A DNA stretch of 64,000 nt from a bacterium (GCA_965205865.1 CBDBHR010000030.1:864001-928000); one strand, 5' to 3'. Shown: positions 206 to 57,027, counted from the stretch's first letter. Numbers and translations are program-made. The notes: generated by a model not told the origin, from the letters alone.

Positions 206-592
206 CTTTTTCCTTTCTTTTTTTTGATTAAAAACAAGATTTAGGAATGATTTAAAACCTGCTTTCGTTCCCGAAAGCACGTTCTCGACGATGCTTCTAC
301 TTTTTTGACGGTTCAGCCCGAACCTTTTTTTCATTTTTATCTTTTTCATGATAATTTCCTTTCCAAATACGATTGAATTAAACAGGGATTTCGAAAGGGA
401 TTTCGTCCCCCTACCCTGGCTTCTCTTATTTTTGGTCATCTCCATAATTTTTCCTTTCTTGTTATTTAGGTTGTGAGAATGATTCACCCACCAGGGAGCG
501 AATCGGAGTTTCGCGGCGGGCACGGCGCCTGCCACGGGGAACTCTCTGCAGAGGGCGAAAAGTTTCTTCGCGAGCATCTTCATCCGGACTAT

Positions 593-830
593 TTTTTGGA
601 TCAGAATGGGTCTTTTTTGAGGAAAATGAGCGTTTGGAAACCGAGCCCTCCTATTTATATAACACACCCAGAGCCAAAATATCACCAAAAAAATCAAATT
701 TTCTCAAAAATCTCCTGAAATCGCTCTCTGGCTTGGAAACCGAGCCCTTCTATTTACATAACGTACCAAGAGCCAGAATCTGACAAAAAAAATCAAATTT
801 TCTCAAAAATTCCCCGAAATCGCTCTCTGG
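593..830 (-). repeat. Sigma-3'-end/promoter repeat, 1 full + 1 partial copy
   Basis: Same ~137-bp unit as 9430-9720 and 38296-38709. Confidence 0.9.
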
Positions 831-2674: not shown

Positions 2675-3565
2675 TTAAACATCTGGATCAATTCCTGCTT
2701 TTTTCAAGATTTCTCTGAGATGTTTTTCTTTAGCTTCCGCCTCTTCCTTATCTTGCACCGCCTCTTCCTCTCTCCGCAGGGCTTCTTCCTTAACTTGCAC
2801 CGCCTCTTCCTCCCTCCGCAGAGCCTCTTGTTTATCTCGTAGAGCCTCTTCTTTGTCTTGTAGGGCATCTTCTAAAAGTTGTTGCCTTGTTTGTTCTTCA
2901 CGGATGGCATTTTGACGGGCTTGGTATAAATGATAATTCGCTTCTTTTTCTGAAAATCTCTCCAGGACTGCCATGGCTTGCCTCATTTCAGGGGTGTTGA
3001 TGATTTCAGGTAATTCCTCCCAATGCTCAGCTTCTTTAAAAAAATATAACCATTGATCTTCTGTTTTCAAGGTCTCGGAATACCGCCATTTTTCCAATTC
3101 CAAAACATGGACTGAGCAATGCTCCGATAATCGTTTTTGGTTCTCTTGATCCACCAGTTGGAAGTGATGATGAAATGCCGGACTCTCAGGAATCAGGTTT
3201 TCAGTCAACATCCAAATGGAGATAACCGGACGTAATTCTGAGAATGGCTCCCCGCTTTGTAACTGGGACTGATAGATATCACTCCACGTATAGAGAATCC
3301 TCTCCGGCAAATAGGAAAAAACCGCCAATTGAATTTCTATCTGATAGGCCGTCCCTTTTTCATCTTTGGCTTTCACATCGACAATCGTCAACTTGTCCGA
3401 ATAAAACTCGCGTTCATTGTAGGGGTTGAGGATTTCGACATCCGAGATGGGAAACTGGGCTGCCAGGACACCGTTGAGGAAATCAATCAGTAAGTTCTCA
3501 TTTTCCTCTGCCCCCAAAATGGCCTTGTAGACACAATCGACTGTCGGAGAAATGCGATGTTTCAC
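2675..3565 (-). CDS. Rpn family recombination-promoting nuclease / PD-(D/E)XK protein
   Basis: SPTVDCVYKAILG, VDVKAKD...YQIEIQ motif, C-terminal EEALR heptad repeats; GTG start after GAGGAG. Confidence 0.9.
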   Translation of the reverse strand: MKHRISPTVDCVYKAILGAEENENLLIDFLNGVLAAQFPISDVEILNPYNEREFYSDKLTIVDVKAKDEKGTAYQIEIQLAVFSYLPERILYTWSDIYQSQLQSGEPFSELRPVISIWMLTENLIPESPAFHHHFQLVDQENQKRLSEHCSVHVLELEKWRYSETLKTEDQWLYFFKEAEHWEELPEIINTPEMRQAMAVLERFSEKEANYHLYQARQNAIREEQTRQQLLEDALQDKEEALRDKQEALRREEEAVQVKEEALRREEEAVQDKEEAEAKEKHLREILKKAGIDPDV

Positions 3566-4086
3566 AATGATACTCCTCAAAGAAGGGAACAAGAGAGCAC
3601 TTGTTTTCAATCAGTATATCAAAGCGTTTGGGCATGACAAGCCTCAATATCCTCTACCTTCAAATTCGGAAAATCATCAATGATTTCATCAGCGTTATCG
3701 CCACTGGCTCTCTGAAGGCAACATCTTGGTAGATTTTCCCGCAATCCCTTGAAAAATCAAGGGAGTCTCCGGTCATAAAGGAACCGAACCGACAAACTCC
3801 TCGAGAAAAAGATATTGGCCTTCTTCCAAAAGAGGAAAGTTTTAAGCAGAGCAGAACTGAAAGAGTTTTCCCGGTTATCTCAGCGGACCCTCGAAACGCG
3901 TGCCGAATGGGCATCAGTCCTTGAAATGATTCGCTCTGCATCCCCTGCTTTTCGTTCCGGGAAGGGCAGGATTGCCCCTTATTTTCAAGGACTGACACAG
4001 AGAGCAGCGAGGATCAAGTCCTGGATGAGACAAGCACTCGTCACTGAGAAGTTAAGAGGAGCAAAAAAGCTGTTTTTTCTTCCGCG

Positions 4087-9430: not shown

Positions 9431-9720
9431 TTTTTTTGACCAGAATGGGTCTTTTTTGAGGAAAATGAGCGTTTGGAAACCGAGCCCTTCTATTTATATA
9501 ACGTACCAAGAGCCAGAATCTGACAAAAAAAATCAAATTTTCTCAAAAATCTCCTGAAATCGCTCTCTGTCATCCGGACTATTTTTTTGACCAGAATGGG
9601 TCTTTTTTGAGGAAAATGAGCGTTTGGAAACCGAGCCCTTCTATTTATATAACGTACCAAGAGCCAGAATCTGACAAAAAAAATCAAATTTTCTCAAAAA
9701 TTCCCCGAAATCGCTCTCTG
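9430..9720 (-). repeat. Sigma-3'-end/promoter repeat x2 (151-bp period)
   Basis: CATCCGGACTA at 9420 and 9571. Confidence 0.9.
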
Positions 9721-10601
9721 GCGCGGTGCAACTGTTGGGAGATCATATCCTTTTCGGTCTTGGTCAGTTCCTTTCTAGGAAGCGCCAACTCCTCGGCGGC
9801 AAGGGCTTGCAGGGACAGCCTGTCCCAATAGCAGCGGCGCAGCAGCCGAGCGGTCTGGGGATGCTCGTCTTCCAGTTGTCTCAGGGCCCCTCCTACCCGC
9901 TCAATCTTCTCTTCCTGCAATTCCGCCGACTGGGCCTCCCACCAGGCCTGCATAGAGCGCAGCTCATCCACCTCTTCCGGGGCAGCGACTTCCGGCTGCC
10001 GTTTGTCACGTCTGATTTGGTCCAGCAGATGATTCTGAACGACTCTGTACAGCCAACCCAGGAAGGCTTTATCGGCCTCGCCTTGGAATTTCTCCAGCTT
10101 GCTCTCCCACAAATCCTTCCAGATTTCCTGAACCACCTCATCCGCCTGATGGAGGCTCCGATACTTGCCAATCAGCGATTGGGCAGTGTGGAAGGTAAAG
10201 GTGAGGCCGTCCGGGGAAATATCCCAGCTTTCCACCAGACCCCCTGTTCTGGCAGAGTCAGGTATGTAAAAGGCTGTAAGGTCATATTCGTCCCTATCTA
10301 CTGCCCAGTTAAGATTGCCTAGCATCTCGCCAACTTGCTCGTTCAACTTCATCGTTGGATGCCCGAACCAGGCGTCAGAACCCGCAGGCTCGTTTCCTAA
10401 GCCCACGGTCAGTGTCCCACCATACTCTGGCGCGCTCACCACCTTACCCGTGGTTGGGTCGGTCACGTACTTCTTCTCCGCAGCGGCTGTCGGGCCGACC
10501 CAGAGGGCGGTCACGCCCAGGGTGAGGGCCAACAGCACCGAGAAGAGTTTCATCGAAGGCCTGGGGCCTGCCGGGTTCAGCCCCACTACAGAGGCAAACA
10601 T
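9684..10601 (-). CDS. In-frame chimera: SBP N-terminus fused to ECF sigma regions 2-4
   Basis: ...SPDGLTFTFH|TAQSLIGKYRSLHQADEVVQE...; junction at 10187-10192. Confidence 0.85.
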   Translation of the reverse strand: MFASVVGLNPAGPRPSMKLFSVLLALTLGVTALWVGPTAAAEKKYVTDPTTGKVVSAPEYGGTLTVGLGNEPAGSDAWFGHPTMKLNEQVGEMLGNLNWAVDRDEYDLTAFYIPDSARTGGLVESWDISPDGLTFTFHTAQSLIGKYRSLHQADEVVQEIWKDLWESKLEKFQGEADKAFLGWLYRVVQNHLLDQIRRDKRQPEVAAPEEVDELRSMQAWWEAQSAELQEEKIERVGGALRQLEDEHPQTARLLRRCYWDRLSLQALAAEELALPRKELTKTEKDMISQQLHRARERFRGIFEKI

Positions 10602-13953: not shown

Positions 13954-16040
13954 GTGTTACCCAGTGGGTGCTCACAGGAACATATGTGAAATTCCCATCA
14001 GACCAAAGTTTAGCCAACAGGTCAGTAGCGAAATCCGCGTGCGTCACAGTAATGTGGGGTATGAAGCCGGATAGAGCAAGAGTGTAGGCCGCGTGATTGA
14101 GCCTCGAAATAGAAATTGTTGTGGTTTGTATAACTCCCTCAGAGGACTATGATGGAGGAAAGCCGACGGCGTTCAAGTGTCGGAAGGCAGCAGTCCGAGT
14201 GTGCATTAGGGCTAGCACGAGGACACCACCGGGGTCGAAGAGCGGGGCATGCGCTTACAGGGGTAGCTCGGGAACTTGGGAGAACCTGTTGTCTCCATGC
14301 CTAAAATCGCCGGAAGCAAGGTGTACCGGCTTACCAAGAGACCTGGCGTTAGGGGGCGGCTTCCAGCCTCCTGACGAGTCCCAGTGGGAAACACAAAGAA
14401 GAGAAAGCGGGCAGGGTATCGGAAAGCAAGTCTAAACAACGAGCGATTTGAGAGGGGCAATGAGGTAGTCTTAGCGGAACATAGTACCGATGATTAGAGC
14501 CTTAAGGCTGTGATTGAGAAAGTGGGGAACGGAGACCCAAGGGACCCATCGTAGGGAAGGTGAAGCCGGGCATAACGTTCAGTCGAACAGAACTATAGGA
14601 GAAACTTTGAGTTCACTAACTATCTCAACAAAACTTCGACAGATTGCAGAGCAAGCCAAAGGCAATCCTGGAATGATTTTTACCAACTTAGCCCACCACA
14701 TGGACGTTGACTTTCTGCGAGAGGCGTATCGCCGGACCCGTAAATCGGGAGCACCGGGGGTGGACAAGGTGACTGCGAAAGACTATGAGCAGAACCTTGA
14801 AGCAAACCTTCTCGACTTGCATGAACGCTTGCGTAGTGGACGGTACGTAGCGCCGCCGGTTAAACGTGAGTGGATTGACAAGGAAGATGGTTCAAAAAGG
14901 CCGTTGGGGTTGCTAACGTTTGAAGACAAAATCGTTCAAAGGGCCGTTCTGATGCTGTTGGAAGCGATCTATGAGCAAGATTTCCATGACGTTTCCTATG
15001 GTTTTCGGATCAAACGTGGACCCCAGAAAGCACTCAAGGAGCTACGGGAAGAGTGCATGAGGGGGAACGTGGGATGGATACTGGATGCCGATATCAGTGG
15101 ATTTTTCGACAATTTGGACAAAGGCCAGTTGCGAGAATTTATCAAGCAACGGGTCAACGACGGCGCGATATTGCGGTTGATAGGAAAATGGTTGAATGCG
15201 GGGGTCCTGGACGGAATCACCCTGACTCATCCCGAGACGGGGACTCCACAAGGGGCGGTCATTTCACCAATCCTGGCCAATATCTACCTGCATTATGTCC
15301 TGGATGAATGGTACCTAAAAGAGGTCAGACCTCGTCTAAGAGGCAGAAGCAACCTGGTTCGTTTTGCTGATGACTTTGTCATCAGTTTTGAACAGGAAGC
15401 CGACGCCCAAAGAGTGATGGCCGTCTTGCCTAAACGATTTGCTCGCTTTGGCTTGATGATACATCCTGAGAAAACGAAGCTGATTGCATTCAGAAAACCG
15501 GTAGCCAATACGATTGCCGGCAAAGGAAAGGGGACCTTCGACTTCTTAGGATTCACCCATTACTGGGCCAGATCACGCTTTAGTTATTGGGTGATCAAGA
15601 GGAAGACAGCTTCCAAACGAATGAGACGAGCAATGAAGCGACACTGGCAATGGTGCCGGGGCAACCGGCATTTGCCACTGGAGGAACAGTACAAAGCTCT
15701 CTGCCAGAAACTACGCGGATACTACCAATATTTTGGGGTTCGTTGCAATATGCAACAGCTCAAGGTGGTGTACAAACATGTGGAAGAGGCATGGAAGTAT
15801 TGGCTGAGCCGACGCAGTCGCAAAGGAACGGTCTCTTATGAAAAGTTGGAAAAGCTGAGACTCATTTTTCCGCTCCCGAAACCCAGGATCGTCCACGACA
15901 TCTAAACAGGCTTGCAGGGTAGTAAAGTTATGCGTTAGAGGGGTACCAATCCCTCTAATTACCGAGGAACCGTATGAGCGAATTGTTCACGTACGGATCT
16001 GCGGGGGGGCTGGTTGGGTAACCACTGGCTCTACCCGGAC
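13954..16040 (+). mobile_element. Group II intron
   Basis: RT ORF; domain V GAGGAACCGTATG...CGTACGGATCTG and domain VI ending CTACCCGGAC; 5' end GTGTTACCC approximate. Confidence 0.9.
14514..15905 (+). CDS. ltrA: Group II intron reverse transcriptase/maturase (no En domain)
   Basis: APGVD, KRPLG, SYGFR, DADISGFFD, GTPQGAVISPILAN, RFADD, FDFLGF; start codon uncertain. Confidence 0.95.
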   Translation: MRKWGTETQGTHRREGEAGHNVQSNRTIGETLSSLTISTKLRQIAEQAKGNPGMIFTNLAHHMDVDFLREAYRRTRKSGAPGVDKVTAKDYEQNLEANLLDLHERLRSGRYVAPPVKREWIDKEDGSKRPLGLLTFEDKIVQRAVLMLLEAIYEQDFHDVSYGFRIKRGPQKALKELREECMRGNVGWILDADISGFFDNLDKGQLREFIKQRVNDGAILRLIGKWLNAGVLDGITLTHPETGTPQGAVISPILANIYLHYVLDEWYLKEVRPRLRGRSNLVRFADDFVISFEQEADAQRVMAVLPKRFARFGLMIHPEKTKLIAFRKPVANTIAGKGKGTFDFLGFTHYWARSRFSYWVIKRKTASKRMRRAMKRHWQWCRGNRHLPLEEQYKALCQKLRGYYQYFGVRCNMQQLKVVYKHVEEAWKYWLSRRSRKGTVSYEKLEKLRLIFPLPKPRIVHDI

Positions 16041-18894: not shown

Positions 18895-19388
18895 TTTTTT
18901 TGACCAGAATGGGTCTTTTTTGAGGAAAATGAGCGTTTGGAAACCGAGCCCTTCTATTTATATAACAGAAAAATACTCAAATTGCTGATATTAAATGACA
19001 TTTCTTCAATTTCACAGGATGAAATTTGTTTGATACAGTGTTCAGATGGCCAAAATCAGCAAAAAATATTTTTGATGAGTTTTCCCAAAATATTCGTTTC
19101 TTGAAAATAGGTGAATACCATTAAATATCATGTGGTTATCTAATTTTCGGCCAAGCACTATTTATATAACGTACCAAGAGCCAGAATCTGACAAAAAAAA
19201 TCAAATTTTCTCAAAAATCTCCTGAAATCGCTCTCTGTCATCCGGACTATTTTTTTGACCAGAATGGGTCTTTTTTGAGGAAAATGAGCGTTTGGAAACC
19301 GAGCCCTTCTATTTATATAACGTACCAAGAGCCAGAATCTGACAAAAAAAATCAAATTTTCTCAAAAATTCCCCGAAATCGCTCTCTG
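18895..19388 (-). repeat. Sigma-3'-end/promoter repeat x2, first copy interrupted
   Basis: Units split by 191-bp insert 18967-19157. Confidence 0.9.
18967..19157. mobile_element. AT-rich MITE-like insertion
   Basis: Flanked by 13-bp direct repeat CTATTTATATAAC; subterminal imperfect inverted repeat TGATATTAAATG/CATTAAATATCA. Confidence 0.6.
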
Positions 19389-23599: not shown

Positions 23600-23872
23600 A
23601 TTTTTTTGACCAGAATGGGTCTTTTTTGAGGAAAATGAGCGTTTGGAAACCGAGCCCTTCTATTTAACGTACCAAGAGCCAGAATCTGACAAAAAAAATC
23701 AAATTTTCTCAAAAATTTCCTGAAATTGCTTTCTTTTTTTGATCAGAATGGGTCTTTTTTGAGGAAAATGAGCGTTTGAAAACCGAGCCCTCCTATTTAT
23801 ATAACGTACCAAGAGCCAGAATATCACCAAAAAAATCAAATTTTCTCAAAAATTCCCCGAAATCGCTCTCTG
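23600..23872 (-). repeat. Sigma-3'-end/promoter repeat x2
   Basis: First copy has a 4-bp deletion at the -10 region. Confidence 0.9.
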
Positions 23873-29895: not shown

Positions 29896-30321
29896 TATTT
29901 TTTTGACCAGAATGGGTCTTTTTTGAGGAAAATGAGCGTTTGGAAACCGAGCCCTTCTTTATATAACGTACCAAGAGCCAGAATATCACCAAAAAAATCA
30001 AATTTTCTCAAAAATTTCCTGAAATTGCTCTCTGTCATCCGGACTATTTTTTTGACCAGAATGGGTCTTTTTTGAGGAAAATGAGCGTTTGGAAACCGAG
30101 CCCTTCTATTTATATAACGTACCAAGAGCCAGAATATCACCAAAAAAATCAAATTTTCTCAAAAATTTCCTGAAATTGCTTTCTTTTTTTGACCAGAATG
30201 GGTCTTTTTTGAGGAAAATGAGCGTTTGGAAACCGAGCCCTCCTATTTACATAACGTACCAAGAGCCAGAATATGACAAAAAAATCAAATTTTCTCAAAA
30301 ATTCCCCGAAATCGCTCTCTG
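29896..30321 (-). repeat. Sigma-3'-end/promoter repeat x3
   Basis: GACCAGAATGGG at 29906, 30054, 30191. Confidence 0.9.
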
Positions 30322-35674: not shown

Positions 35675-36265
35675 CCCCGTCATTCCCGCGAAAAGCCTGC
35701 CCCGGACTGGATCCGGGGCCGGAATCCACCTTCCACGTCTTTCCGGCCCCTTCCACTGAAGGGCGCGGCACTCTCTAAGGTGCGAATGACCCCTGCCAAG
35801 AAACTGGCCTCTCACCGTTTTGGGGAGTCCAGAGGGGTGAAACCCCTTTGAAACGGGGGTTCAAGGGGGTGTCCCCCTTGATTCCCCCCATCATTCCGCC
35901 GAAAGGCGGAATCCACCTCCCCCGTCATTGCGGTGAAAACCGCAATCCACTTAGACGATCCCCTTGCCCGGCTCACACGGCACTCCCTAAGGTGCGCATG
36001 ACCCTTGCCAAAAAAACCTGGCCTCTCACCGTTTTGGGGAGTCCAGAGGGGTGAAACCCCTTTGGAACGGGGGTTCAAGGGGGTGTCCCCCTTGATTCTC
36101 CCCGTCATTCCGCCGAAAGGCGGAATCCAGAGTAATTTCAAATGGTTGCGTTTTCTGGATTCCGGGTCTCCGCCCGGAATGACAGTGAGAAAGCGCTGCT
36201 CGCAATGACATTCCACTCAACCCCGTCATTGCGAGCCCCGATTTATCGGGGCGTGGCAATCTCGT
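35675..36265. repeat. REP cluster with ~150-bp direct repeat
   Basis: ~35767-35915 repeated at ~35979-36130; ATTCCGCCGAAAGGCGGAATCCA palindromes. Confidence 0.8.
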
Positions 36266-36353
36266 CGCCCTCTCCAGGGGTATGGGAGCTGGGAAGCCTG
36301 AACCTCCCAGCTCCCTTTTTCCCTAAGGTCACAAGCCACAAGGGGTGAAACCC

Positions 36354-38153
36354 CTAATGACCCATTGCTTTCTTCAGCTCACTATCAATCCAGAGGCGGG
36401 CGTAGACGGTGTTATACTGACCGCTTCCCAGGAAGTATTCATTGTTGTAGCCTATGACCCACGGCTGGACTGGCAAGAAAATTGGGGGCATAGGACCAAA
36501 TATCGCCCAGAACTTCTCTATCGCATACTGGTGCATCTCTCCAAGAATCCTGTTCTGCTCCTCGATGGTGGTAGCGGCTCCGGCGTCTTCAAACTTGGCG
36601 TTATACCACGAGTCGTTGACATTGGAGGTGTTCCATGGTGCGTCCTTCTGATAGCGCTGTAGGATTACCGATAGGATCCACCTCCCGGCCGCTTCCGCAC
36701 TGATCATTTCGAAATCGTCCTCACTTCTTCTAGCGACAAAGTCCGCTGTTGTCACTACCTGAATCTCGACATCAACGCCAATCTTATTCCAGTATGAAGC
36801 GACTAATTCTACATAGTTCAAATCATAGACATCGCGGTGGTAATGGGTGACCTTGAATCGAACGCCGTCCGCGCCGCGCTTGTATCCGGCCTCATCAAGC
36901 AACGCTTCGGCACCTTCCGGGTCGTAGTCAAAGACCTTCTTGACATCTTCGGGCCACTCTTCAAAATTCGGGATAGCCTCTGTCATATTACGGTTTACCA
37001 GCCCCTGGGGTGTCACATCTGCATAACCCTTATAGTAGGCGTTGTTAATTGTCTCGAGGTCAATGGCCATCTGCATTGCCTTGCGCACCCTGATGTCGTC
37101 AAAGGGCGGCAACTTAACGTTCATACCAAAACCATTCACCGAGTCTCGAGAATACGAATCTATCACGAGTTCGGGGTTAGTCCGCTGCAGGCTCTCTACC
37201 TGGTCGAGAGTCCTGAATGTGTATCCAATATCAACCTTACCTGTGCGCAGTGCCGCCAGTTGTGTTGCCACTTCTGGCATAAACAGGGCCCTTAACTGGT
37301 CAATATACGGCAGGCGGTACTCCGGGTATTTTTCGTCGTAGCCCCAGTAGTCAGGATTCTTGTCCCAGGTGACAGAACTGCCCTCGACATACTCGGTCAG
37401 CATCATGGGTCCGGTGCCGACCAGGTTCCTCCAGTCCGTAACGTCCCCGTGTTCCTTGATGACCTCGGGGGGGTATATCCAAGCAGCGTTCTCGTCGAGG
37501 ATAGCAGCCAGCGCTTGGAGGTTTAGCTGCTTCAGCTTAAAAACAACCGTCCACTTGTCGGTGGCTTCTATCGATTCAAATTCCATACCGGCAAAGCCTA
37601 CAGCATGTTCGCTACGTTCGGTGAAACCGCTGCCCATACCCAACAGACGGTGATAGTTGTATTCGACGTCGTATGCATCTAGCTCCCGACCGTTCATCGG
37701 TGGTTTATCATGCCAGTGAACGCCCTGTCGGACTTTGATGACATACGTCAGTGGGTCGGGCTGCGACCAGCTTTCCGCCAGTTGACCTCTCGTGTTAGTT
37801 GGAACGTTGTGATACTGGAAGTCTTCTATGTCCCTGGGCGTTGCCCAGTCCATCATGACCAGTTTCTCGTTGACGCCACCGCAGTAGCTTTGTGACCATA
37901 CACCAGAGATCACGGCGTCAGGACCCGCCGGCTCATCTGCTAGGGCGAAGGTGAATGTCCCGCCGTATTCAGGAGCAGTCACGACCTTACCTGTGCTGGG
38001 GTCGGTGACATACTTCTTCTCAGCCGCGGCTGTCGGGCCGACCCAGAGGGTTGCGCCCAGAATGAAAGCCAGCAGCACCGAGAGGAGTTTCATGGCAGAC
38101 CTGGGGCCTGCCGGGTTCAGCCCCACGAAGGAGGCGACAAGTTTTTTACTCAT
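36354..38153 (-). CDS. ABC peptide/nickel-family substrate-binding protein
   Basis: Family-5 SBP motifs; closest to 27934-29754. Confidence 0.95.
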   Translation of the reverse strand: MSKKLVASFVGLNPAGPRSAMKLLSVLLAFILGATLWVGPTAAAEKKYVTDPSTGKVVTAPEYGGTFTFALADEPAGPDAVISGVWSQSYCGGVNEKLVMMDWATPRDIEDFQYHNVPTNTRGQLAESWSQPDPLTYVIKVRQGVHWHDKPPMNGRELDAYDVEYNYHRLLGMGSGFTERSEHAVGFAGMEFESIEATDKWTVVFKLKQLNLQALAAILDENAAWIYPPEVIKEHGDVTDWRNLVGTGPMMLTEYVEGSSVTWDKNPDYWGYDEKYPEYRLPYIDQLRALFMPEVATQLAALRTGKVDIGYTFRTLDQVESLQRTNPELVIDSYSRDSVNGFGMNVKLPPFDDIRVRKAMQMAIDLETINNAYYKGYADVTPQGLVNRNMTEAIPNFEEWPEDVKKVFDYDPEGAEALLDEAGYKRGADGVRFKVTHYHRDVYDLNYVELVASYWNKIGVDVEIQVVTTADFVARRSEDDFEMISAEAAGRWILSVILQRYQKDAPWNTSNVNDSWYNAKFEDAGAATTIEEQNRILGEMHQYAIEKFWAIFGPMPPIFLPVQPWVIGYNNEYFLGSGQYNTVYARLWIDSELKKAMGH

Positions 38154-38295
38154 AATAACCTCTTTTATTTGAGGGTTTTGAGAATGATTCACCCGCTGTG
38201 GGGCGAATCGGAGTTTCGCGGCGGGCACGGCGCCTGCCACGGGGAACTCTCTGCAGAGGGCGAAAAGTTTCTTCGCGAGCATCTTCATCCGGACT

Positions 38296-38709
38296 ATTTT
38301 TTTGACCAGAATGGGTCTTTTTTGAGGAAAATGAGCGTTTGGAAACCGAGCCCTTCTATTTATATAACGTACCAAGAGCCAGAATATCACCAAAAAAATC
38401 AAATTTTCTCAAAAATTTCCTGAAATTGCTTTCTTTTTTTGACCAGAATGGGTCTTTTTTGAGGAAAATGAGCGTTTGGAAACCGAGCCCTTCTATTTAT
38501 AGAACGTACCAAGAGCCAGAATATCACCAAAAAAATCAAATTTTCTCAAAAATTTCCTGAAATTGCTTTCTTTTTTTGACCAGAATGGGTCTTTTTTGAG
38601 GAAAATGAGCGTTTGGAAACCGAGCCCTTCTATTTATAGAACGTACCAAGAGCCAGAATATCACCAAAAAAATCAAATTTTCTCAAAAATTTCCTGAAAT
38701 TGCTTTCTG
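38296..38709 (-). repeat. Sigma-3'-end/promoter repeat x3 (137-bp period)
   Basis: GACCAGAATG at 38304, 38441, 38578. Confidence 0.95.
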
Positions 38710-39278
38710 GCGCGGTACAACTGTTGGGCGATCCGGTGCTTTTCCGTTTGGCTCAGTTCCTTTCTAGGAAGCGCCAACTCCTCGGCGGCAAGGGCTTCCA
38801 GGGACAGCCCGTCCCAATAGCAGCGGCGCAGCAGCCGAGCGGTCTGGGGATGCTCGTCTTCCAGTTGTGTCATAGCCTCTCCTGCCCGCTCAATCTTCTC
38901 TTCCTGCAATTCCGCCGACTGGGCCTGCCACCAGGCCTGCATAGAGCGCAGGTCATCCACCTCTTCCGGGGCAGCGAGTTCCGGCTGCCGTTTGTCACGT
39001 CTGATTTGGTCCAGCAGATGATTCTGAACGACTCTGTACAGCCAACCCAGGAAGGCTTTATCGGCCTCGCCTTGGAATTTCTCCAGCTTGCTCTCCCACA
39101 AATCCTTCCAGATTTCCTGAACCACCTCATCGGCCTGATGGAGGCTCCGAAACTTGCCAATCAGCGATTGGGCAGTGTGGAGGATATATGCCCTGTAGTG
39201 TTGGTACAACTCCTCAAAAGCCTCTTCCTTCCCTTGAACGGACCCCTCCAGCAGTACCCGCAATGGTTTCCGGTTCAT
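38673..39278 (-). CDS. ECF sigma-70 factor
   Basis: 201 aa, C-terminus RARKQFQEIFEKI. Confidence 0.92.
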   Translation of the reverse strand: MNRKPLRVLLEGSVQGKEEAFEELYQHYRAYILHTAQSLIGKFRSLHQADEVVQEIWKDLWESKLEKFQGEADKAFLGWLYRVVQNHLLDQIRRDKRQPELAAPEEVDDLRSMQAWWQAQSAELQEEKIERAGEAMTQLEDEHPQTARLLRRCYWDGLSLEALAAEELALPRKELSQTEKHRIAQQLYRARKQFQEIFEKI

Positions 39279-39469
39279 CGTTGGACTCGGTTTTGATTTT
39301 CAGCCAAGAACGCCCAAGAACAGCCTCAATATAGGAAAAGCAAGAGGGAAACGCAAGGTGGGGAAAACCGGCCTTGCCATGGAAACCGTTTGCAACTGAT
39401 TTGGAGTCCTTTTTGTTCTAATTGTTCGGCGACTGTCATAAGAACCTCGTGAGCCTCTTCTATCATCGT

Positions 39470-39745
39470 AAATCCGGGGACAGTTACTAATTAATTGCAA
39501 TGGATTCCTTCATTTGATAATGGTTGTAAATAATTATCGAGCATTGAATTTTCACTTCAGCAATGGGAGGTAAGCTAGCCAGGTTAGCGAGAGTGGTACT
39601 TCCAGGGGTCCCCCATCATGTCACCCAAGGAGGGGTTCGCTCCATAAAAATCTTTTCAAGTGACGAGGATCGCAGAGAGTATCTCTCTCTGCTCAACGCG
39701 CATGGAGAAAAAGAAAGATAAAAATTAGTAACTGTCCCCGGATTT
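39470..39745 (+). mobile_element. 276-bp TIR/REP-bounded RAYT remnant
   Basis: Identical to 20149-20424. Confidence 0.85.
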
Positions 39746-56537: not shown

Positions 56538-56714
56538 AGCGAACCTGAAGCGAGGGCATAGAAACGGGCAGGATCGCGATGGCTGTAAGTCCCGGAATTT
56601 TATAGATTTTCTCGTTCCCTGCGTTGTTTCGTTATCAGACTTTCAGGACAGTTCAAGGAGGATCGCGGAAACGAGGGGAAAATCCTAAGCAAATCAACTG
56701 CTTGGGAGGTTAAA
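56538..56714 (+). promoter_or_regulatory. CRISPR leader
   Basis: Non-coding gap cas2-array with GCGAACC...GATCGCG motifs typical of I-C leaders. Confidence 0.7.
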
Positions 56715-57027
56715 GTAGCGCTCAACCTCCGGGTTGGGTGAGGATTGAAACTAGCATAATAATATTGAGTTTTTTCATCAAAAAAAGCGTAGCACTCAAC
56801 CTCCGGGTTGGGTGAGGATTGAAACTAGTGTAAGAGGATTGAAACTTGATGAAGTGAGATCAATGAGAGGAGTTCCGAAGTAGCACTCAACCTCCGGGTT
56901 GGGTGAGGATTGAAACATATTCAGATGGTGGATTTGGATGAAAAAATACAGTAGCACTCAACCTCCGGGTTGGGTGAGGATTGAAACTAGTGTAAGAGGA
57001 TTGAAACTTGATGAAGTGAGATCAATG
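56715..57027 (+). CRISPR. CRISPR array, 4 full 37-bp repeats plus 2 partial
   Basis: GTAGCACTCAACCTCCGGGTTGGGTGAGGATTGAAAC at 56715, 56789, 56880, 56951; spacers 37, 54, 34 nt and a truncated copy of spacer 2. Confidence 0.95.

Follow-up and report, generated by a model that had tools for sequence, protein, structure and literature searches.

The question raised by this locus is whether a short tandem array lying between a sigma factor gene and a transporter gene is a stack of promoters, the number of which might set expression of the downstream gene, or a by-product of repeated duplication without effect. We examined it in a window of 64,000 nt (G000:C30:864001-928000), taken from a 4.74-Mb bacterial assembly in 30 contigs (G000). 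All genes in the region lie on the minus strand, and the cassette concerned, M6, runs from a 201-aa sigma gene through three 137-bp units and a 143-nt leader to an SBP_bac_5 gene, followed by two permease genes. Tandem Repeats Finder placed the array at 38297-38708 (period 137, 3.0 copies, 99% matches), and blastn with a single unit recovered three copies at 99.3–100% identity. Read on the minus strand, each 137-bp unit opens with 32 nt of sigma coding sequence covering the final 10 codons (...KQFQEIFEKI), continues through the TGA and closes with 102 nt of downstream DNA, much as the initial annotation had it (~10 terminal sigma codons, the stop and ~100 bp beyond); the TGA of the sigma gene itself occupies 38673-38675. 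The parts of the cassette are as follows.

39328-39356, minus strand: weak sigma-70-like word TTGCGT-N17-TATATT, ~50 nt upstream of the sigma start; found in 8 of 10 aligned cassettes and below the threshold of the consensus scan
38673-39278, minus strand: M6 sigma gene, 201 aa (ORF list); ECF superfamily, a genus-restricted orphan
38571-38707, minus strand: unit 1, sigma-proximal; its first 35 nt are the genuine sigma end (10 codons and TGA)
38434-38570, minus strand: unit 2, entered through a 137-type junction; the duplicated sigma codons are non-coding here
38297-38433, minus strand: unit 3, leader-proximal; 100% identical to M5 unit 2 at 30047-30183
38154-38296, minus strand: structured leader of 143 nt, from the last unit to the SBP start codon; −51.4 kcal/mol (z −3.94), equalled by none of 200 shuffles
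36354-38153, minus strand: M6 SBP_bac_5 gene, 599 aa from an ATG behind AAGAGG (ORF list; Pfam SBP_bac_5, 4.6e-68), with the frame open upstream to 38402

Related arrays occur in the other cassettes of the window, with units named here by the heptamer that follows the sigma stop.

29898-30319, minus strand: M5 array, three units (TGTCATA, GGTGATA, GGTGATA), with one 137-type and one 151-type junction
23601-23870, minus strand: M4 array, two units of 137 bp, GGTGATA and then TGTCAGA with a 4-nt deletion 3' of CGTT
18895-19386, minus strand: M3 array, two units, the second interrupted at 18967-19158 by a 192-bp MITE-like repeat with duplicated GTTATATAAATAG on its flanks
9431-9718, minus strand: M2 array, two units with a 151-type junction
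592-827, minus strand: M1 array, 1.7 units with a 99-type junction (99-bp period), GGTTTCCAA joined to GCCAGAGAGCG

The copy numbers first given for these modules (~1.7, 2, 2, 2, 3 and 3) were matched by Tandem Repeats Finder and blastn. Both of the periods originally reported, 137 and 151 bp, are present, and a third junction type, of 99 bp, has to be added to them. The MITE-like repeat in M3 sits directly after TATAAATAG in the second unit and has 42 matches in the genome at 84–100% identity (blastn). Beyond the window, at C30:855833-856120, the final unit of cassette M0 carries an internal 14-bp duplication (TTTTTTTTGTCAGA twice), by which the heptamer is doubled.

In the genome as a whole we counted 19 units in nine cassettes, seven of them within 50 kb of contig C30 and two on C15, while the sister species G038 (OZ242383.1) has nine units in five cassettes and one partial unit. 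Among 64 genomes of the same order, G038 was the only other one with both the sigma gene and the units. A 17-mer scan of 185,579 species genomes returned 33 loci, of which only the six of OZ242383.1 were real units, the rest being chance 17-mers in unrelated genomes; JGI metagenome contigs gave 0 matches to the unit. Several sequencing runs that contain the stretch are labelled sponge metagenome, and the presence of the arrays is supported by two independent assemblies. Cassettes hold 2, 1.7, 2, 2, 2, 3, 3, 1 and 2 units in G000 and 1, 1, 1, 2 and 4 in G038, that is, at least two units in 10 of 14 cassettes and a single copy in the other four, which indicates that the single-copy state is real.

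The early claim that repeat number varies was borne out on two levels, among paralogous cassettes (1–4 units) and between orthologous ones: at M6/L022 (98% aa) and M5/L021 (95% aa), orthologous SBP genes are preceded by three units in G000 versus one in G038. The arrays are thus head-to-tail units between genes, with a copy number that differs between close relatives, which is what defines a control-region VNTR, and this natural case belongs to a known class, that of tandemly repeated control regions. In a limited search of the literature on promoter-region tandem duplication beside ECF sigma factors, and on binding proteins of sponge SAR324, we found no prior description.

How the arrays arose can be read in part from their 14 unit-to-unit junctions, which are of three types.

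137-bp type: GGTCAAAAAAA joined to GAAAGCA, 5 of 14 junctions
151-bp type: CCGGATGA joined to CAGAGAGCG, 6 of 14 junctions
99-bp type: GGTTTCC(AA/TC) joined to GCCAGAGAGCG, 3 of 14 junctions

The 137 type could be derived from the 151 type through a 14-nt deletion; the 99 type has two extra sigma nucleotides and must have arisen separately. All left edges cluster within 4 nt, 22–26 nt upstream of TTGAGA, and all right edges lie at least 21 nt past TATAAATAG, with none of the 14 junctions cutting the core that extends from TTGAGA to that point. Two main unit alleles, GAGAGCGATTTCGGGGAA...TGTCAGA and GAAAGCAATTTCAGGAAA...GGTGATA, are accompanied by recombinants between the two. Such chimeric alleles, together with the identical units of M5 and M6 and the three-versus-one orthologues, show that the cassettes have repeatedly undergone unequal recombination and gene conversion with each other. 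The real C-terminus of the sigma factor (RERFRG or RKQFQE) tracks the allele of the first unit; we considered its co-variation with the heptamer as a functional signal and rejected it, since the two sites are 40 nt apart and linkage explains the pattern.

Judged from these sequences, our leading reading, held tentatively and with clearly less than even confidence, is that the arrays may be stacked promoters, most likely of the ECF type, the number of which changes by unequal recombination. The single-copy state consists of the sigma stop, a T-run, a bipartite word and ~75 nt, followed by the structured leader and the SBP gene, and the array is this sigma–SBP intergenic control region duplicated head to tail. 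Duplication occurred at least twice, and probably three times, to give the 99-, 137- and 151-bp junctions, after which the tandem copies expand, contract and homogenise via unequal homologous recombination and gene conversion among sister cassettes. One to four stacked promoters would then feed the SBP leader. In the most likely form of this mechanism, an ECF-type promoter would be read in trans by the intact copies of the cassette sigma, and transcription would scale with copy number; what the sequences show directly is the anatomy of the arrays, their distribution, the junction types, the orthologue differences in copy number and the protein families, whereas promoter activity, dependence on the sigma factor and an effect of dose are inferred.

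The argument for stacked promoters starts from what duplication preserves. Down to the shortest, all units retain a complete promoter-sized module, made up of an A/T-rich block (final sigma codons and T-run), a −35-like heptamer, a −10-like word CGTT and ~20 nt beyond, and this one core is preserved at all 14 junctions. Moreover, cassettes with a decapitated sigma gene (M2 and L025) still carry the sigma 3' end and a unit before an intact SBP gene. The unit itself does not look like a structured RNA: its predicted fold is not more stable than shuffled sequence (z −0.35 on the minus strand, +0.22 on the plus strand) and no Rfam family was matched in the units, the only match in the window being a group II intron at 13989-16040. 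A riboswitch, sRNA or attenuator was rejected on these grounds, which points to a role at the DNA level. Two other candidates were also discarded. For a sigma-54 promoter, TGGC and TTGG are, by eye, 5 nt too close, and two short reading frames within the units (27 codons from the ATG at the 151-type junction, and 30 codons on the plus strand) lack a convincing ribosome site, the plus-strand frame being broken, in addition, by 2- and 4-nt indels among units.

Nearly as likely as stacked promoters, and still tentative, is a neutral by-product, in which one transcript, started at the promoter ahead of the sigma gene or at whatever lies further up, covers both the sigma and SBP genes. The units would then be no more than an intercistronic spacer that was duplicated, with unequal crossing-over changing their number at random and to no effect. 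The conserved core tells against it, as the left edges of all three junction types agree to within 4 nt and none of the junctions cuts that core; so do the cassettes which have lost the 5' half of the sigma gene and its promoter and nevertheless retain a unit and an intact SBP gene, and the prevalence of cassettes with two or more units. In favour of the neutral reading, no strong terminator was found between the sigma and SBP genes (best hairpins −4.9 kcal/mol, all A-U), so read-through from upstream could suffice, and the cassettes are rich in A/T tracts and recombine heavily, as seen in chimeric sigma ends, an SBP–sigma fusion in M2 and the identical M5/M6 unit. Copy-number change is, moreover, the default behaviour of any tandem duplication above 100 bp, which counts against the stacked-promoter reading.

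Sequence divergence also fits drift. Between cassettes, SBP bodies are 44–75% identical versus ~90–97% for sigma, units and leader, with a median pairwise distance of 0.06 for both first unit and leader, and of 0.05 for the last unit. Synonymous divergence of the sigma genes (0.015–0.088) is the same as these unit and leader distances, so the similarity of the units reflects recent spread or concerted evolution rather than constraint and provides no evidence of function.

We then considered the promoter-like words within the units. Two overlapping candidates are present in each M6 unit.

38640-38665, minus strand: ECF-like word GGTGATA-N15-CGTT in unit 1 (regex scan, a pattern match), repeated at 38503-38528 (unit 2) and 38366-38391 (unit 3)
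38657-38686, minus strand: sigma-70-like word TTGAGA-N18-GATATT in unit 1 (9 of 12), its −35 within the last sigma codons, repeated at 38520-38549 and 38383-38412

The bipartite motif does lie where it had been placed, just past the sigma stop on the minus strand, after a run of seven or eight T. Across the 28 units of the two genomes, the heptamer behind this run is TGTCAGA in nine, TGTCATA in three and GGTGATA or a one-base variant of it in 16, and it is followed after N15 by CGTT in 26 units and by TGTT in the remaining two. Its interpretation as an ECF promoter stood in part. The validated promoter signature of ECF41 sigma factors, each with a single neighbouring target promoter, is given by Wecke et al. 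2012 (PMC3426412) as TGTCACA-n16(±1)-CGTC/TGTT. TGTCAGA-N15-CGTT comes near to it, agreeing in spacing, in CGT and in 6 of 7 positions of the −35 heptamer, while the two TGTT variants agree with its alternative −10. Against this, the GGTGATA-like heptamers, which make up the majority, match only 4 of 7 positions (GGTGATA and TGTCAGA differ at 3 of 7), and beyond the units the motif shows no enrichment: genome-wide, GT[CG]A[GT]A-N15-CGTT gave 37 matches, 17 in units and 20 elsewhere, versus 42 in a block-shuffled genome. Nor was a bipartite motif of this kind found upstream of the sigma genes, where an alignment showed only TTGCGT-N17-TATATT, or in a regex scan near any sigma; neither a regulon nor autoregulation is therefore supported. 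The heptamer is, besides, among the most variable parts of the unit: of 137 columns, 42 vary among the 28 units, most of all in the heptamer and in the TATATAAATAG stretch. That the putative promoter words vary most weighs against stacked promoters and is in line with neutral drift.

The second word raises the alternative that the housekeeping sigma factor reads stacked promoters of the form TTGAGA-N17/18-(G/C)A(T/G)ATT, with the heptamer variants acting as −10 variants of different strength. We regard this as unlikely, although it would explain why every duplication carries the last sigma codons, as the −35 lies inside them. The consensus scan flagged TTGAGA-N18-GATATT in all three M6 units, the would-be −10 retains A at position 2 and T at position 6 in all heptamer variants, and TG stands one base before the hexamer in TGTCAGA and TGTCATA units; canonical TTGACA-type promoters are used at other SBP loci of the organism. 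TTTGAGAAAATTTGA is invariant in 28 of 28 units, 13 non-coding copies included, with the reservation that 15 of its 18 nucleotides served as the extraction anchor, yet BLAST and anchor counts agree (19 and 9). On the other side, the nine TGTCAGA-type units were not flagged (CAGATT scores 3 of 6), an 18-nt spacer is suboptimal, and the three sites found by the scan are copies of one unit, so that a single match per unit is compatible with chance (shuffles gave 1.3 ± 1.0). The sigma-70 word thus fits GGTGATA units and the ECF-like word fits TGTCAGA units, each reading suiting one allele well and the other poorly.

What varies least in the units suggests a further alternative. The longest invariant runs among the 28 units, of 27 nt (CATTTTCCTCAAAAAAGACCCATTCTG) and 18 nt (ATTTTTGAGAAAATTTGA), contain the arms, TTTTTGAGAAAAT and ATTTTCCTCAAAAAA, of a 12-nt inverted repeat (92%) with centres 84 bp apart, and these could be operator sites, or merely the places where two ancestral alleles did not differ. 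An array of regulator sites, with operators bracketing the start region and multiplied by duplication, is in our view improbable. That both arms coincide with the two longest invariant blocks favours it, and a run of at least 25 nt has P = 0.0015 by permutation, in a test that ignores shared ancestry. The arms are, however, low-complexity A/T words, the right arm is absent from 99-type units, and no candidate regulator gene is found in the cassettes.

The stacked-promoter reading also depends on the adjacent gene, which had been called a sigma factor, and profile searches agreed. The M6 protein scored 56.5 bits against TIGR02937 (cutoff 42.9, residues 19-181), 3.9e-10 against Pfam Sigma70_r2 (39.8 against a cutoff of 24) and 22.8 bits against Pfam Sigma70_ECF (cutoff 21.1), and its solved relatives are ECF sigma factors only (best RpoE 2q1z, 4.9e-7). 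It is a ~200-aa two-domain protein (regions 2 and 4) above ECF profile cutoffs, as expected of the ECF family (group IV). Relatives are few: matches at E ≤ 1e-10 occur in 2 of 64 genomes of the order and comprise, among 1.84 billion representatives, seven proteins, all from its own cluster or fragments thereof, with the next match outside that cluster at 3.5e-9 and 36% identity. Full-length matches from a word search were all 82–100% identical, and protein records place sigma copies on no fewer than twelve additional contigs. A Pfam search for an anti-sigma factor or other input device in the cassettes found none, the neighbours being a PDDEXK_2 remnant, SBP_bac_5 and permeases. The PDDEXK_2 nuclease/transposase-like gene (311 aa, 4.7e-50) is complete only upstream of the M1 sigma (2675-3610), and a 3' remnant of it lies within 200–400 nt upstream of most other sigma copies; the sigma gene may have travelled with it.

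Five of nine sigma copies in G000 are intact and four are damaged: M1 by a frameshift, M2 by the loss of residues 1-29 and in-frame fusion to an SBP fragment, C15a by a TAG, and M0 in that its match begins only at residue 15. Among the G038 copies, two are truncated and another has its start ATG changed to ATT. The median dN/dS of the sigma gene was 0.84 (range 0.48–3.2; eight full-length copies in 28 non-independent pairs, with few changes per pair and hence noisy), compared with 0.26–0.38 for SBP orthologues. Together, these values and the damaged copies indicate that the sigma copies are at best under relaxed selection, which, with the missing input device, speaks against stacked promoters read by this sigma.

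Some details of individual copies were also noted. The frameshift of the M1 sigma (835-1500) lies near residue 133, and upstream of that gene stand 3.2 copies of the 13-bp word GGAAACGCAAGGT (1453-1493), so that the −35-like word TTGCGT is present several times; L021 of the sister species shows this duplication too. The open frame of M2 (9684-10601, 305 aa) joins an N-terminal SBP fragment in frame to sigma residues 30-201 and, from its sequence, looks like a recombination chimera.

Decay of the sigma gene and the two unit types, three substitutions apart, could be combined in one scheme, to which we give little credence. The cassette (PDDEXK_2 remnant, orphan sigma and unit), having spread to positions before diverged nutrient-binding genes, would be a portable, tunable expression module with two promoter classes, TGTCAGA...CGTT read by its own sigma and TTGAGA...GATATT by the housekeeping sigma. 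Mixed arrays would set both strength and regulatory input, and sigma copies would decay as units switch class.

Downstream of the arrays, the product of the next gene is, as first proposed, a substrate-binding protein of Pfam family SBP_bac_5. Searching G000 with the M6 protein (tblastn) gave 111 matches that span at least 480 of its 599 aa, and in 100 of these identity reaches 40% or more; the expansion of this family in a 4.7-Mb genome is very large. The proposal that every SBP is driven by an adjacent sigma is consequently wrong at the scale of the genome, as ~100 further paralogues have neither sigma gene nor unit. About 30 of these have the leader behind canonical TTGACA promoters; blastn against the genome showed that, from position 24 on, the M6 leader is a module common to ~30 other SBP loci. 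This module, ~125 nt long, comprises three hairpins, a ribosome site and an ATG, and occurs in one to three tandem copies before SBP genes, in frame with them.

The two kinds of upstream region meet in G038, where the SBP gene orthologous to that of M3 (96% aa) no longer has the sigma gene or the 5' part of the unit, and a canonical TTGACA-type promoter element is joined into the unit at TTCTG followed by GCTCTTGG. This fusion implies that the sigma cassette and the ordinary promoter element are interchangeable upstream parts, which favours a cis-acting role for the unit. The canonical element, TTGACA...TAnnAT, was found at 26 loci in G000 (e.g. C30:484594, C30:836356 and C25:258741) with its spacer containing repeated GTT or GTA, (GTT)n or (GTA)n. 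Spacers measured 14 nt (nine copies), 16 nt (eight), 17 nt (three) and 20 nt (six), a workable spacing in some only, and 24 nt, by eye, in L023 of G038.

All 24 sequencing runs for the stretch consist of assembly contigs, and RNA evidence came from four libraries among them (X4, X9, X7 and X14) over 36000-39600, with contigs mostly 100–600 nt long, which show the presence of a sequence and gave no transcript starts or ends. Sigma, unit, leader and SBP sequences were all present. Contigs for the sigma and SBP genes had similar k-mer depth, as co-transcription under the neutral reading would have it, in a measure that cannot rank genes; leader contigs had 4–10 times the depth of sigma contigs, the leader being common to 7–9 cassettes. 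The 151-type junction was seen as the loose end of a contig from an independent library (X14, 38285). Contigs from two studies end at 38314, which we take to be a branch in the graph of 31-letter words (leader path versus 151-junction path) and not a transcript end.

Set beside known systems, the stacked-promoter arrangement resembles ECF41 in outline. Both have a small alternative sigma factor adjoining its presumed only target gene, no membrane anti-sigma, and a bipartite word with a GTCA-containing −35, a 15–17-nt spacer and a CGT/TGTT −10; the target there is a COE gene and here an SBP gene. Unlike ECF41, the present sigma (201 aa) ends ~20 residues past the RAR of region 4, without the ~100-aa C-terminal extension, no motif lies upstream of the sigma gene, and over half of the units are GGTGATA. 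Extended-sigma models (TIGR02960, PRK08241) matched region 2 only, far below cutoffs, and we found no ECF41-specific similarity, so the resemblance is in how the sigma would work and not in family membership.

Engineered tandem core promoters in Escherichia coli, also placed head to tail before one gene, raise transcription with copy number, ~4-fold at five copies according to a summary (Li et al. 2012, summarised in PMC3311589). This lends the stacked-promoter reading some support, but those promoters are synthetic, whereas the arrays described here occur naturally and vary, take in coding sequence from the gene upstream, and have putative activity. Another parallel lies within the same genome, where TTGACA-type elements are likewise portable upstream cassettes before a shared SBP leader, one orthologue having the sigma cassette in one species and the TTGACA type in the other; unlike these elements, the cassette carries a sigma gene and a PDDEXK_2 remnant, and its promoter-like part is tandemly amplified. 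Promoter repeats that alter expression by copy number include TR34/TR46 of Aspergillus fumigatus cyp51A and the short repeats behind phase variation in Haemophilus and Neisseria promoters. As in those cases, control-region copy number varies between close relatives and could set the level of expression; in contrast to them, the units are 99–151 bp long and each encloses an entire promoter-sized module, where those repeats involve an enhancer site or a spacer microsatellite.

If the units are active, they would constitute a natural gene dosage set at the promoter and not at the gene, through a promoter module amplified one- to four-fold and reshuffled among ~14 sister cassettes in a symbiont with ~100 paralogous binding-protein genes. 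Recombination alone would then be enough for such a genome to diversify how its many transporters are expressed, and the units would offer a defined target site for an ECF-like sigma without relatives outside its genus. If they are inert, they would still illustrate cleanly how non-coding DNA undergoes concerted evolution and tandem duplication, a matter of limited general interest.

Two further elements were observed in the window. The group II intron mentioned above (13989-16040; Rfam RF02005, 105.8 bits, and RF00029) has a reverse-transcriptase ORF at 14514-15905 and interrupts the permease region between M2 and M3. At 56713-57027, a repeat with a 162-bp period, in which a 38-nt word with ATTGAAAC at its end occurs twice, looks like a short CRISPR array.
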